Positions 2,831 through 9,113 of a stretch of 64,000 bases of DNA are shown here, piece after piece; position 1 is the first letter of the stretch; each line of letters begins with the position of its first letter. Below the pieces are notes generated by a model. That model was given only the letters and a program-made list of their open reading frames with translations. It searched no databases and was not told where the DNA came from. The position numbers were made by a program, and so were the translations under genes. Source of the stretch: Nitrospirota bacterium. GTDB lineage: Bacteria > Nitrospirota > UBA9217. The DNA is taken from positions 1,248,001 to 1,312,000 of the forward strand of contig CAWCKW010000012.1 in the NCBI GenBank assembly GCA_963796285.1. The letters run 5' to 3'.

Positions 2831-3082
2831 TTATTTTATCTCCTTCTTTTTTCTGGCGGCCTCGACTCCCAGAATGGTCCAGAAATGACCGGTAAACGTG
2901 CCATGAAAGTATGAAAAAACGAACGCGGTGATGATCGGCAACAGCGCGTACAATCCGCCCTTGGCGAACGTACTGTTGATCAGGTCCTGCTTCAGCAGGA
3001 GGGTCGTGTAGAGCGCTATGGATATGAGACCCATAACGATCATTGCGCCCACCGGCTTCTTCTTTGTGTTGCTTTGTGCCAT
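2831..3082 (-). CDS. Small two-TM protein of the TauE operon
   Basis: 83 aa, hydrophobic, FSYFHGTFTGHFW motif, RBS AAGGAGG. Confidence 0.8.
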   Translation of the reverse strand: MAQSNTKKKPVGAMIVMGLISIALYTTLLLKQDLINSTFAKGGLYALLPIITAFVFSYFHGTFTGHFWTILGVEAARKKKEIK

Positions 3083-3169: not shown

Positions 3170-3674
3170 TCATGCCCGTGCCCCGTCCATGACCACGACG
3201 AGCGGGCATTTCAGCTTCTGCCAGAGTTCCGAAAGCGTCTTGTCCTTCTTGTTGCAGTCCGCGTCCAGGCTGTGCGGGGACTCAATGACCGCGAAGAGGA
3301 TGTCCTTTTCGCTGTTCGTATAATCGATGATCTGCTGCTTGAGACACCCGGTCCGCGGGATTATGCGATAGAGAATTCCTTCCGCTTTGAGCTCTGATTC
3401 AAAGTGTACAAGCAGGGGGTCGACCGGGTGCGCGTTCCCGGCCCGGCGCAGTGACATACAGAATATCGAGGTGCGCGTCGATCCTCTGGGCGGTGTTCGA
3501 TGCATATTTCAGCGTCTTGGCATCGATCCGGCCCTCCTTGAGCGCAAGCAGGACTTTTCGCCCTTCCTTCATAAGCGACGAGGCCGTCACCGCCTCGCCT
3601 GCTTCAGCGAACGTGGCTGCAGCCAGTGCGTCTTCGACGTTCTTCATCATCTTTTTTAACTTTGTCGCTTCCAT
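3170..3674 (-). CDS. Conserved hypothetical USP-like protein with N-terminal AATFAEAGE motif (frameshift near 3440)
   Basis: ORFs 3399..3674 and 3170..3505 join; ends CPLVVV as USP folds do. Confidence 0.75.
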
Positions 3675-3706: not shown

Positions 3707-3877
3707 TTAGTCAGCGCGCAGTTCTTTTCTCGCGGCCGGTCTCTTGTAGTCATAGGTAGACGGGCGGTCGCTCTTCCTGTCTTCTTTCATGATCTGGCGT
3801 GCAGTCTCAAACTCTCCTGCTTCCGCGAATGTCGCGGCCACCATTGCTGTTTCGAATTTATTGAGTAAGGTTTTCAT
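3707..3877 (-). CDS. 56-aa small protein with AATFAEAGE motif
   Basis: Manual translation MKTLLNKFETAMVAATFAEAGEFETARQIMKEDRKSDRPSTYDYKRPAARKELRAD*, with GGAGG RBS. Confidence 0.85.
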   Translation of the reverse strand: MKTLLNKFETAMVAATFAEAGEFETARQIMKEDRKSDRPSTYDYKRPAARKELRAD

Positions 3878-3924: not shown

Positions 3925-3940
3925 TTCAACTCCTGTGCCA
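3925..3940 (-). promoter_or_regulatory. Sigma-54 (-24/-12) promoter for the TauE/USP operon
   Basis: TGGCAC-AGGAG-TTGA on the minus strand, about 50 nt upstream of the ATG at 3877; -12 box is a TTGA variant. Confidence 0.7.
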
Positions 3941-4015
3941 AAGCACAAAAGCAAGATAACATGCTGATAGCATATGATTATTTACAAGGAGGGCAAAATC
4001 GGTACCCATACACAA

Positions 4016-4120
4016 CTGTTTTATAATGCAATACTCTTTTACGAAATAGACGCTACCTGTTGATTTTTATGATTAATTTTGGCTGTTGCATCAAAACGGG
4101 AAACGTTGTAAAATGCAACC
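4016..4120. promoter_or_regulatory. Candidate upstream activator sites for the NtrC-type regulator
   Basis: Related dyads TGTTTTATAATGCAATA, TGTTGCATCAAAACG and CGTTGTAAAATGCAAC, 80-180 nt upstream of the sigma-54 site. Confidence 0.5.
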
Positions 4121-4144: not shown

Positions 4145-6153
4145 ATGAAGTTCTTTAAAAAATCGGAAGACAGCTATCAGGAACTCATCATTGAAGAACT
4201 TCGTCAGAAGATCTCGGCAGGCCGCCATGCCGAACCCTGTCCAGAAGATCGCTGAGCAGGAACTCGATCTGCTGACCAGGATCAGCGCTGCCTCAGCCGA
4301 GTACACGATCGGCGTCACCTACATCGACTACCTCGTTTCCCTGCCCTGGAACAAAAAGACCGAGGACAACCTCGATATTGTCCGCGCCGAGCGCATCTTG
4401 AACGAGAACCACTACGGTCTGAACAAGATCAAAGAACGGATCATGGAGCACCTCGCCATCAAGGTGCTCATCATGAACAGGAAGGCGCGGATAATGGTCG
4501 TCGATGATGAGGAGATCGCTCGAAAAAACCTGGCGCATATCCTGACGAAAGAAAATTACGATGTGGTCGCAGTCGCCGACGGCGAAACCGCGCTCCGGGA
4601 GCTGGAGTCCTCGGAATTTGACGTGGTGCTGACCGACCTGCGCATGGGCAAGATGGACGGCATGGACCTGCTGGACCGTATCAGGATAAAACACATTGAC
4701 ACGAAGGTCGTGATGGTGACGGGCTTTGCCACGGTCCCATCGGCCATCGAGGCCATGCGGAAGGGCGCTTTCCACTACCTGGCCAAGCCCTATCAAACTT
4801 GATGAGGTACGCGAAACCGTGAAACGGGCATTGGAACAGCGGGCGCTCAAACCCAGCACCAAGGGCTCCGTACTCTGTTTCGCCGGCCCCCCGGGAACCG
4901 GCAAGACCTCGCTCGGGAAGTCCATCGCCCGGGCTCTTGGCAGAAAATTCACGAGGATCGCCCTCGGCGGCCTCAAGGATGAGGCCGACATCCGCGGACA
5001 CCGGCGCACCTACGTGGGCGCCAAGCCCGGCAGGGTGATCGAAGAGCTCCGCAGGGTGGAATCCGCCAATCCCGTCATCATGCTCGACGAACTCGACAAG
5101 ATCGGACATGACTTCAAGGGAGACCCCGCATCTGCCCTGCTTGAAGTGCTCGACCCGGAGCAGAACCGCGCCTTCACGGACCATTATCTGGACGTCCCCT
5201 TCGACCTTTCGAGCGTCATGTTCATTCTGACCGCGAACGTGCTCGACACCATTCCCGCCCCGCTGCGCGACCGCATGGAGGTCATCGAGTTCAGGGGCTA
5301 CACGCGGGAAGAAAAGGTCCGCATCGCATCGCAGTTCCTCTGCACCAAACAGACACGCGAAAAAGGCCTCTCCCTAAACCAGGTGGTCTTCACTGATGAG
5401 GCCGTGGACAAGATCATCCAGGAATACACACGCGAGGCCGGCATCCGGAACCTCGAGCGAAGGATCGCCACGATCTGCCGCAAGATCGCCCGGGAATCGC
5501 TCCAGAACGCGGGCAGCGCGGAGATCGTGACCATAACCCCCGCGTCCGTGGAGCACTACCTGGGGCGGAAAAAGTTCCACTTTGATGTGATCGAGGAGCA
5601 GGACCGGATCGGCGTGGCCACCGGCCTCGTGCGCACGGAATCCGGCGGCGAGATCATCTTCGTCGAGGCGGCAAAAATGAAAGGCAAAAAAGAACTCATC
5701 ATCACCGGCTCGCTCGGCGACGTGATGCGCGAATCCGCCCAGGCAGCGCTGAGTTACATCAGGAGCAATGCCGACGCCTTCGGCATCCCTGATGACTTTT
5801 TCGAGCACCACGATATCCACATCCACGTACCGTCGGGGGCGATCCAGAAGGACGGGCCCTCTGCCGGCGTCACCATCCTGGCCGCGCTCCTGTCGCTGTT
5901 GACCAAACGGCCGGCACGCAGGGACGTGGCCATGACCGGCGAGATAACGCTGACCGGCCGGATACTGCCCGTCGGCGGCATTCAGGACAAGGTCCTCGCG
6001 GCCAGGCGGGCAATGGTCAAACTCGTGCTCGTGCCCGCACGGAACCGGGCCGACGTGGAAGAACTGTCCGATGACCTGCGAAAGGACGTCGACATCCGCC
6101 TTGTCGACACCGTGGCCGACGTGGTTGACGCGGTGCTGACCGGCCATCAATGA
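4145..6153 (+). CDS. lon: Lon (S16) protease lacking the N-domain, with an inserted receiver domain (indels near 4220 and 4790)
   Basis: [29 protein letters not shown] (VVDDE, LTDLRM, YLAKP), Walker [19 protein letters not shown], catalytic KDGPSAG and GGIQDK. Confidence 0.92.
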
Positions 6154-7679
6154 TGAACTACACCCCGAGCATCAGACAGAAGATCACCCTCGGCTACTTC
6201 GCCATCGTGGCCATGATCATCGGTTTGTCCGTGTTCACCTTTCTGGAACTGCGGTACATCGAGAAGAAGATCATGTTCGGCGAGGCCATCTCGGAATTTT
6301 TCGACACCACGCTCGAGGTCCGGCGCTTCGAGAAGAACTTCTTCCTGTACGAAAAGCAGCCCGATTACGATGAGAACGTCCAGTACGTGTCCCGGGCGCA
6401 GGACATCATCGACAACAACATCAAGGGGTTCACCGCCATCGCGTCGTCGGACCAGATATCGTCCCTCCAGGTCAGCCTGAAAGAGTACAAAGACCTCATG
6501 GAGCAGTACGCGAAGACCGGCGGCGGGCAACCTGCCCGAAAGACCATGCTGGCCGCGAAGATCCGCGTCACCGGGAAAGACATCATCACCATTTCCGAGG
6601 AAATCTCGAAGACTGAGCGAAAGAGCCTTCAGCAGATCCTGAGCAGCTCCCGGAACATCCTCCTCATATCGATCATGCTCCTCTCACTGGCCGCGATCGC
6701 GATCGGCCAGATCCTGTCGCGCATGGTGGTAAAACCGCTCAAGTCCCTTGAAGAGAGCATGGGAGTGATCGCCGAAGGGGAATTCGAGCCGATCGCGATC
6801 GACTCCAAGGACCGGGAGATCGTCTCGCTCACGAGGGCCTTCAACAAGATGCTGAAGCAGCTGGAGCTGCACGAGAGGCACCTGATCCAGTCCGAGAAGC
6901 TCGCTTCCCTCGGCACCCTCCTGTCCGGCGTGGCGCATGAATTGAACAATCCCCTGTCGAACATCTCGTCGTCGAACCAGATCCTGATGGAGGAATTCAG
7001 GGAAGCCCTTGAAGCGCGGTCTCCCCGGCCCTGGCCCCTGGATCCCGACTTCACCAAGGAACTGATGGCGCAGATCAACGAGCAAACGGACCGGGCGAGA
7101 AATATTGTCCGTTCCCTGCTCGACTTTTCCCGTAACCGGGACTTCAAGAAGGAATCGGTATCGCTCAAGAACCTGTTTGAGGAAACAATCCAGTTCGTAA
7201 AGGGACAGGTGCCGGCGAAGGCGGGGATCTCGCTCGCCGTACCCGATGACCTGGTCATAGTTGCGGACAAACAGCGGCTCCAGCAGGCATTCCTGAACCT
7301 GATCAAGAACGCCCTCGACGCGATCGCGCCGAATGAAGGAACGATCACCATCAAGGCGGAGAAGCGCCGGGCCATGGACGATCTCGAAGACGAGATGATC
7401 GGCATCCACAACTACCTAAAATACCGGGGCAAGTGCACGCTGGACCAGGACACCGTAGACATCGAGATCCATGACAGCGGCTCCGGCATTCCGCTTGAAT
7501 TCATCCAGAAGATCTTCGACCCCTTTTTCACGACCAAGGACGTGGGCAAAGGATCAGGCCTCGGCCTCTACATCGTGCACGAGATCATCGAGGAGCACGA
7601 CGGCTGCATCGCCGTTGACAGCGAACCCGGCAGGGGCACAACGTTCCTGATACGGCTTCCGCTCGTAGACAAGGCATAA
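6150..7679 (+). CDS. Membrane HAMP sensor histidine kinase
   Basis: Two TMs, HAMP, H-box [11 protein letters not shown] boxes, DPFFTTK. Confidence 0.95.
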
Positions 7680-7751: not shown

Positions 7752-9113
7752 ATGCAAGGTGTGGCAAAACTACTCATCATCGACGACGAGCGGATCGCGC
7801 TCAGGAACCTCGAGCACATCATGAAGAAGGAAGGCTACGAAGTGACCGGCACGCAGAACGGGCCGAACGCGCTCAAGCTGATCGAGGAGCAGCACTTTGA
7901 CGTGGTGCTCACGGACCTGCGCATGGAAAAGGTCGACGGCATGCAGATCCTGAAAAAGACACGGGAGCTCTACCCGGACACGGAAGTGATCATGATCACC
8001 GGCTACGCAACGCTTGACTCCGCCGTCGATGCCATGAAGCACGGCGCGTTCTATTATATCGCCAAACCCTTCAAGCTCGAGGAAGTCCGCAAGGTCGTCC
8101 AGGAGGCCGTGCACAAGGTCCGGCTCAAGACCGAGAACCGTCATCTCCGGGAACAGCTTGAGACCTACCAGGGCAAGGTCAAGATCATCACCCAGGACCC
8201 GACCATGCAGAAACTGCTCGAAACCGCGCGCCAGATCGCGCCCACGGACTGCAACGTGCTGATCTCGGGCGAGAGCGGCACGGGCAAGGAGCTCTTCGCC
8301 CGCTTCATCCACCTGAACAGCAAGCGCGCCGAGGGGCCGTTCTTCGCCATCAACTGCGGCGCGTTCACCGAGGAGCTCCTCTCGAACGAGCTCTTCGGCC
8401 ACGAAAAAGGCGCGTTCACCGGCGCAAACGCCATGAAGAAGGGGCTCATCGAGATGGCTTCCGGCGGGACCCTGTTCATGGATGAGGTCACCGAGATGCC
8501 GTCGTCCATGCAGGTCAAGCTCCTCCGGGTGATCCAGGAGCGGGAGGTGCTGCGCGTCGGCGGGACCGAGTCGATCAACGTAGACGTGCGGTTCGTGGCA
8601 GCGACGAACCGGGACATCCATGATTCCATGAAGACCGGCTCATTCCGGCAGGACCTTTACTTCAGGCTGAACGTGGTCTCGCTCCGCATCCCGCCGCTGG
8701 CGGAGCGCAAGGACGACATCCCCCTGCTCTGCTACTATTTTTTAAAGAAATATAACCTGCTTATGAAAAAAGTGGTGACCGAGATCGCGGAGGACGTGAT
8801 CGCCCTGCTTCTGAACTACGACTTTCCGGGAAATGTGCGGGAGCTCGAGAACATCATCGAACGCGGCGTGGCGCTCACGAATGGCAGCGTTATTGAGACC
8901 GGCCATCTTCCTGAAGACCTGCGGGAGCTCAGTATCAAGACCTTCCGGAAAAAAGAAGGAAAGATCCCCTCGCTCGAGGAGCAGGAAGAGGCCTACATCA
9001 AATGGGTGCTCGGCGAAGTCGGCGGCAACAAGACGCTCGCCGCGCAAATCCTCGGCATCGACCGGGTCTCGCTCTGGCGGAAGCTCAAGAAGTACGGGCT
9101 GGAGAGCGACTAG
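7752..9113 (+). CDS. Sigma-54-dependent response regulator (NtrC/AtoC family)
   Basis: REC, GESGTGKE, GAFTGA, Fis-type HTH. Confidence 0.96.
   Translation: MQGVAKLLIIDDERIALRNLEHIMKKEGYEVTGTQNGPNALKLIEEQHFDVVLTDLRMEKVDGMQILKKTRELYPDTEVIMITGYATLDSAVDAMKHGAFYYIAKPFKLEEVRKVVQEAVHKVRLKTENRHLREQLETYQGKVKIITQDPTMQKLLETARQIAPTDCNVLISGESGTGKELFARFIHLNSKRAEGPFFAINCGAFTEELLSNELFGHEKGAFTGANAMKKGLIEMASGGTLFMDEVTEMPSSMQVKLLRVIQEREVLRVGGTESINVDVRFVAATNRDIHDSMKTGSFRQDLYFRLNVVSLRIPPLAERKDDIPLLCYYFLKKYNLLMKKVVTEIAEDVIALLLNYDFPGNVRELENIIERGVALTNGSVIETGHLPEDLRELSIKTFRKKEGKIPSLEEQEEAYIKWVLGEVGGNKTLAAQILGIDRVSLWRKLKKYGLESD

Follow-up and report, generated by a model that had tools for sequence, protein, structure and literature searches.

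The closest described system is that of Desulfovibrio vulgaris Hildenborough, for which a 2011 study described DVU3303 as a Lon-containing response regulator that forms, together with DVU3304 and DVU3305, a three-component system (PMC3333781). According to that source, DVU3303 may require phosphorylation for activity, and its orthologs occur in Thermodesulfovibrio and others; the same regulon of DVU3305 is given in PMC4641369. Mutants of DVU3303, DVU3304, and DVU3305 are reported to have phenotypes of the same sign and a cofitness exceeding 0.9, and on chlorate all three gain fitness, whereas a DVU3299 mutant loses fitness (PMC10102598). The fusion of a receiver domain (REC) with Lon, hereafter REC-Lon, is not mentioned in the available text of PMC12471899, and no phosphotransfer or protease assay on a REC-Lon was found in the open-access literature searched.

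The window, by which we mean the whole stretch of 64,000 nucleotides of Nitrospirota DNA analyzed here, contains a system of the same layout. As in DVU3303-3305, a Lon protease with a REC, a kinase overlapping it by 4 nt, and a sigma-54 activator follow each other in the same order and with matching sizes, and, as in DVU3302-3298, a divergent operon of five genes ends with a membrane protein and then a UspA protein. The first divergent gene encodes 56 amino acids in the window and 59 in D. vulgaris, and the membrane protein 359 and 356, respectively. The window also shares with the DVU3305 regulon the operator (with one mismatch) and a sigma-54 promoter ahead of the divergent operon's first gene. 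The two systems differ in the length of the Lon protein (668 amino acids in the kin of the window, 702 in DVU3303), in the activator motif (GAFTGA in the window, GAFSGA in DVU3305), and in taxonomy, the REC-Lon kin being Nitrospirota, a phylum other than that of Desulfovibrio. It should be noted that the match is one of gene order, sizes, overlap, operator, and promoter, and not of an alignment with DVU3303 itself. Since PMC3333781 had already reported the fusion and its three-component layout for DVU3303-3305 and put forward the same hypothesis, the system is not new: REC-Lon and its proposed phospho-switch have been in print since 2011, and the window adds one copy. A reading of this DNA made from the sequence only had already supposed that similar fusions might be annotated in sulfate reducers. 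What we add is the conservation among orthologs, the match of the specificity residues, the fixed linker, and the N-terminal tail.

A Lon Protease with an Inserted Receiver Domain

The REC-Lon gene (4145-6153, + strand, including two extra bases in the assembly) runs from an ATG at 4145-4147 to a stop at 6151-6153, which overlaps the kinase ATG at 6150, and its open reading frame spans three successive reading frames. It encodes a tail, a three-helix region, the REC, an AAA+ module, and a Lon protease domain. The aromatic-basic tail (4145-4165, +), consisting of Met, two hydrophobic or aromatic residues, and Lys/Arg, replaces the Lon N-domain, and in most orthologs the open frame ahead of the start is shorter than 30 codons. 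The pre-ATPase helical region of Lon (4227-4457, +; placed by alignment to Lon and an AlphaFold2 model), with the Lon helix motif at 4410-4457, precedes the inserted receiver (4488-4836, +; placed by Pfam, conserved residues, and the AlphaFold2 model), which in turn is located just ahead of Walker A (4885-4908, +). The acidic pair of the REC lies at 4503 and the phospho-acceptor Asp at 4635-4637, with the Thr and the Lys-Pro where the sequence-only reading had put them. Walker B (Asp-Glu) is found at 5086-5091, and the catalytic Ser and Lys at 5860-5862 and 5989-5991 (+). Pfam detects Response_reg in the middle frame (E 1.5e-28) and AAA, Lon_lid, and Lon_C in the last frame.

The intact ortholog P0001 from the same-genus genome G006 (668 amino acids) contains no LON substrate-binding domain according to Pfam and structure alignment. 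It aligns to Bacillus subtilis Lon (3M6A) in two blocks, residues 16-111 with 10-105 and residues 234-666 with 102-532; as these blocks are adjacent in the ordinary Lon, a short linker of that enzyme is interrupted here by about 120 extra residues, the distance from the same helix to the ATPase core being 18-29 residues in 10 ordinary LonAs. The AlphaFold2 model of P0001 (mean pLDDT 84.8, pTM 0.73) predicts a five-strand, five-helix receiver at residues 115-230, with confident REC and Lon domains and low confidence at residues 1-4 and in the linker 236-239. The best fold matches of this model are LonA structures, and REC-Lon scores 754.6 against the TIGR00763 cut-off of 608. The main features read from the letters, that is, the missing N-terminal substrate-binding domain, a complete REC where LonA has a short linker, intact Walker A and B motifs and Ser-Lys dyad, and the overlap of the stop with the kinase start, are all borne out by these domain searches, alignments, and motif positions.

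Both of the indels noted earlier in the open reading frame could be located. They are extra bases relative to kin, at 4218-4220 (from the rows of G005 and G006) and 4793-4794 (both +), and are probably assembly errors as judged by the alignment to kin, contigs of sequence runs, and the error rate of the assembly. Both bases are missing from the contigs of four out of four runs, which came from three studies and of which one was read to about 62%, these contigs representing related strains at 90-99% identity and not demonstrably the window's own reads. A third extra base, near 3437-3440 in the neighboring USP-like gene, is also absent from the contigs of all four runs. A comparison of the assembly (G000) with G006 over 16 stretches showed frameshifts in 46 of the 140 genes that could be compared (222 open reading frames tried), with 74 frameshift events in 157 kb (0.47 per kb), 58 of them +1; at this rate, two events in 2 kb have a probability of about 0.24. 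The absence from all four runs and the frequency of frameshifted genes indicate that the frameshifts of REC-Lon are almost certainly assembly errors and the gene almost certainly intact in the window strain. A true loss of the gene in this strain, leaving a pseudogene or split pieces and no REC-Lon, would agree with the two frameshifts in the assembly, with run contigs that derive from related strains only, and with the stops carried by the G011 copy, but the four runs, the event rate, and the integrity of every catalytic residue in the window make it extremely improbable. Two separate genes are ruled out by the kin, the contigs of all four runs, and 78 full-length single-frame orthologs, in agreement with the sequence-only reading, which had treated the locus as one gene. 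As approximately one third of the tested G000 genes are frameshifted, caution is advisable with any further "split gene" reported from this assembly.

Distribution and Conservation of REC-Lon

Of 401 genomes of the Nitrospirota, to which the window belongs, 69 were found to contain the junction of Lon helix, REC, and Walker A; in the phylum that includes Desulfosarcina it was found in 47 of 401, and one further short match there is an activator and was not counted as REC-Lon. REC, AAA, and Lon_C (PF00072, PF00004, and PF05362) are present in 120 of 120 proteins among the matches listed. Phylogenetic analysis with FastTree of 40 REC-Lon rows (every second ortholog plus the window) and 10 ordinary LonAs placed the REC-Lons on one side of a branch with a support of 96, which is compatible with a single origin. 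The genome of the window also encodes two ordinary, longer LonAs. A separate observation concerns P0178, a Lon-like protein of 1207 amino acids with four matched stretches and an unusual composition.

Conservation was assessed in 78 distinct full-length single-frame orthologs, obtained from 97 of 172 loci; the roles of individual residues in this alignment (pore Tyr, arginine finger, sensor and switch residues) are those we presume them to have. The first Asp of the acidic pair, the phospho-Asp, and the Lys of the REC are found in 78/78 each, and the second Asp (Glu in 2), the Thr (Ser in 2), and the switch Tyr (Phe in 2) in 76/78 each. On the side of the protease, the Walker A Lys, the Walker B Asp/Glu, the sensor-1 Asn, and the catalytic Ser and Lys are likewise invariant (78/78 each), and the pore Tyr, the arginine finger, and the sensor-2 Arg are kept in 77/78 each. 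A degenerate receiver is ruled out by the retention of the phospho-pocket and switch residues in these 78 orthologs.

The linker from REC to Walker A measures 33 residues in 74 of 77 orthologs, and the spacing from the helix to the REC is 15 amino acids in 55 of the 59 orthologs measurable by pattern; both the insertion site of the REC and the linker lengths are kept across the two phyla. Lon-specific positions within the REC are few (four were flagged), so that no clear interface between REC and ATPase is visible in the sequence. The aromatic-basic N-tail, the pattern of which was defined after inspecting the sequences, is present in 89 of 89 orthologs (one of 90 was dropped, having no start) versus 6 of 772 control starts. 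N-terminal membrane anchors are known, for example in EIIA-Glc (PMC6123446), and the tail of REC-Lon seems similar to these; we regard this as a lead, based on resemblance only.

The Kinase, the Activator, and the Divergent Operon

The gene following REC-Lon, equivalent to DVU3304, encodes a sensor histidine kinase (6150-7679, +) with two predicted transmembrane helices, HAMP, HisKA, and HATPase; its extracytoplasmic sensor region (6150-6740) matches no Pfam family, even with the E-value limit relaxed to 1. The DVU3305 equivalent (7752-9113, +) is a sigma-54 response regulator with a REC-AAA-HTH architecture and GAFTGA. The resemblance of the Lon REC to the REC of this regulator two genes downstream, seen already from the letters, holds in the context of the whole genome: the two are 51% identical, with the next best among 85 RECs of the genome at 44%, and the Lon REC stays very like the activator REC on the alpha4-beta5-alpha5 face. 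At five alpha-1 specificity positions, whose exact numbering in the REC alignment is as we assume it to be, the Lon REC is identical only to the neighboring activator, and the other 83 RECs match at two positions at most. Kinase-specificity residues of this kind in RECs are described in PMC2991266, which guided our choice of the five positions. Across 61 Lon/activator pairs, these being the loci out of 90 in which an activator reaches 55% identity or more and including kin that are not independent, the mean specificity match is 3.56 out of 5 versus 3.30 for shuffled pairs, a value reached by 0.4% of 2000 shuffles. In a quick tree of every second pair with the 45 nearest other RECs, the Lon RECs and their cognate activator RECs group apart from 44 of these 45 (SH-aLRT 89), the group not being starred and containing one long-branch intruder; this suggests that the Lon receiver was copied from the REC of the activator.

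Of the 71 loci flanked by 5 kb or more on each side, 45 contain both kinase and activator, whereas 16 have neither of the two; TauE is present in 41 and a USP in 40. In all five tested genomes with a Lon locus lacking the activator, a copy with 58-80% identity is encoded outside the fetched stretch. The activator also occurs without a detected REC-Lon in three genomes (G008, at 69% identity, G025, and the one-contig G036), indicating the protease to be an optional branch. The genes of the module stay together, with order and strand reshuffled among lineages (L022, L024, L042, L174, L180, L192, and others). The earlier proposal of one kinase for both receivers is supported, indirectly, by the specificity residues, the REC tree, the synteny, and the published cofitness, and we consider it likely that the kinase phosphorylates the REC of Lon as well as that of the activator.

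A palindromic operator (4105-4119, no strand assigned), with one mismatch to the EMSA-validated DVU3305 site, lies 40 nt before the Lon ATG, and an operator with at most one mismatch is present in 41 of 87 ortholog upstream regions versus 0.0 expected from shuffles. The loose operator pattern is not enriched in the window (29 matches versus 30 expected); it is thus ruled out as stand-alone evidence, and only position and conservation count. A sigma-54-type promoter, assigned by sequence, is located at 3925-3941 (-), 48 nt before the ATG of the divergent operon; for DVU3302, a sigma-54 promoter at -39 is reported (PMC3333781). This operon encodes a 56-amino-acid peptide with a helical "FAE" motif and a basic tail (3707-3877, -), with the place and size of DVU3302; a USP-like protein of 167 amino acids with an N-terminal FAE motif (3170-3674, -), split by the extra base near 3437-3440; an 83-amino-acid membrane protein of no family (2831-3082, -); a TauE/SafE-family anion exporter (1750-2829, -), with the size and place of DVU3299; and a tandem universal stress protein (909-1784, -) in the place of DVU3298. 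Past this last gene, a second pair of kinase and regulator extends off the window edge (2-817, -; G000 C12:1245674-1247047) and is retained in the close kin L011, L012, L018, and L021. The sensor region of the second kinase is similar to that of the first, and an FAE-bearing USP-like gene comes next.

FAE is a portable helical motif of about 28 residues with 150 matches in 70 of 90 loci, carried by small basic peptides, USP-like proteins (N-terminally or internally), and tandem-repeat proteins, and found also at the C-termini of single-domain receivers (L039, L040, L213, L216, and L231). Besides the window copies at 3707-3877 and 3170-3674 (-), G000 has sites at C12:1243383-1243493 and C3:27146-27253. 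Two near-identical FAE peptides occur in tandem at L225:10287-10634, and several copies also in L034, L174, and L181. The motif matched no Pfam family beyond weak TPR-like matches, and no convincing relative was found among solved structures. It is present in 25 of 41 genomes, namely all 18 with a copy of REC-Lon and 7 without a detected one, and hence follows the module more than the protease; in view of these 7 of 25 motif-bearing genomes, a Lon-specific motif is not supported. The FAE helix is a candidate substrate tag for REC-Lon.

Possible Roles of the Receiver and Comparison with Known Systems

The architecture, conserved residues, linkage, and operator are observed in the sequences; phosphotransfer to the Lon REC, control of proteolysis, the direction of this control, and the class of substrates are inferred. 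The reading we prefer, with a probability of roughly 0.55, is a branched two-component pathway in which phosphorylation alters proteolysis by REC-Lon. The membrane kinase (6150-7679) would phosphorylate two sister receivers; the sigma-54 activator would drive the divergent peptide/USP/TauE operon and bind the operator beside the lon start; and phosphorylation of the inserted receiver, whose linkers fix its distance from the pre-ATPase helices on one side and from the P-loop strand on the other, would alter the activity of the Lon ring, which lacks the N-domain, most probably turning it on. If the Lon REC is phosphorylated, control of proteolysis by this phosphorylation seems reasonably probable. 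Phosphorylation probably activates the protease, given that lon mutants of D. vulgaris resemble kinase and activator mutants; this cofitness could also reflect polar insertions, as lon is the first gene. The gain in fitness of lon, kinase, and activator mutants on chlorate, as opposed to the loss for DVU3299, is not explained by simple activation of DVU3299.

An engineered Meiothermus LonA without its N-domain is reported to keep its ATPase activity and to degrade casein, but not unfolded Ig2 (PMC8087443). By analogy, REC-Lon should be competent but narrow: its expected substrates are proteins that are disordered or specific to the module, and misfolded proteins in general would be left to the two ordinary LonA paralogs. 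A more elaborate version, in which a Lon tethered to the membrane beside the kinase by its aromatic-basic tail, switched directly by His-Asp phosphorylation, degrades FAE-marked module proteins (the peptide, USP-like proteins, and single-domain receivers) and would be a kinase-gated protease with its own degron, is in our view highly doubtful.

The receiver could instead be a targeting or docking module, in which phosphorylation shifts targeting and not catalysis, either by bringing the protease to the kinase or the membrane or by pairing with the activator REC so that the activator or some other protein of the module is captured as a substrate. The missing N-domain, which normally picks substrates, would leave room for such a function, as would the close likeness of the Lon and activator RECs on the alpha4-beta5-alpha5 face and the conserved aromatic-basic tail with its resemblance (and only that) to membrane anchors such as EIIA-Glc (PMC6123446). 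We nevertheless think docking unlikely: insertion of the domain through linkers of constant length agrees with allosteric coupling more than with a loose tether, and if Lon destroyed the activator, the mutant phenotypes should be opposite, whereas the same sign is seen, unless the insertions are polar (PMC10102598). The same cofitness speaks against a receiver that acts as a phosphate sink or competitor tuning the phosphorylation of the activator, with a constitutive protease controlled by transcription only, as losing a sink should oppose losing the activator (PMC10102598). Identical specificity residues in both RECs, an operator adjoining the lon start, and the presence of the activator without Lon in three genomes would suit such a sink. 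A sink could, however, do without a fusion, whereas both the place of insertion and the lengths of the linkers have been preserved in two phyla, and we regard this reading as distinctly improbable.

If the branched pathway with phosphorylation-altered proteolysis is true, it would represent a two-component output acting directly, and adaptor-free, on an ATP-dependent protease. It would then show in what way a receiver inserted in the chain can gate an AAA+ ring, and would provide a model for placing degradation under the control of a signal. With so many intact orthologs and with specificity residues that agree, the question of a phospho-switch is easy to test.

Among better-known proteins, the ordinary LonAs (TIGR00763; 3M6A, Meiothermus 4YPL, and Escherichia coli 6U5Z) share with REC-Lon the AAA+ module, the pore-loop Tyr, and the Ser-Lys dyad, whereas REC-Lon lacks their N-terminal substrate domain and long helix and has the REC insertion of about 120 amino acids; the structure matches of P0001 include no solved structure combining REC and Lon domains. 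Activators of the NtrC1, DctD, and NtrC type likewise have a REC directly before an AAA+ ring, and the best solved matches of the Lon REC include the receivers of NtrC1, DctD, and NtrX, but in REC-Lon the output, as predicted by sequence, is proteolysis and the REC lies inside the chain. NtrC1-type activators possess an inhibitory coiled coil; in the Lon REC, helix 5 ends near residue 230 and lacks a Leu present in 61 of 61 activators, so that this coiled coil seems to be absent. Control of AAA+ proteolysis by His-Asp phosphorylation has a precedent in RssB and CpdR, response-regulator adaptors of ClpXP. Both of these are separate adaptor proteins, whereas the receiver of REC-Lon belongs to every subunit of the protease.
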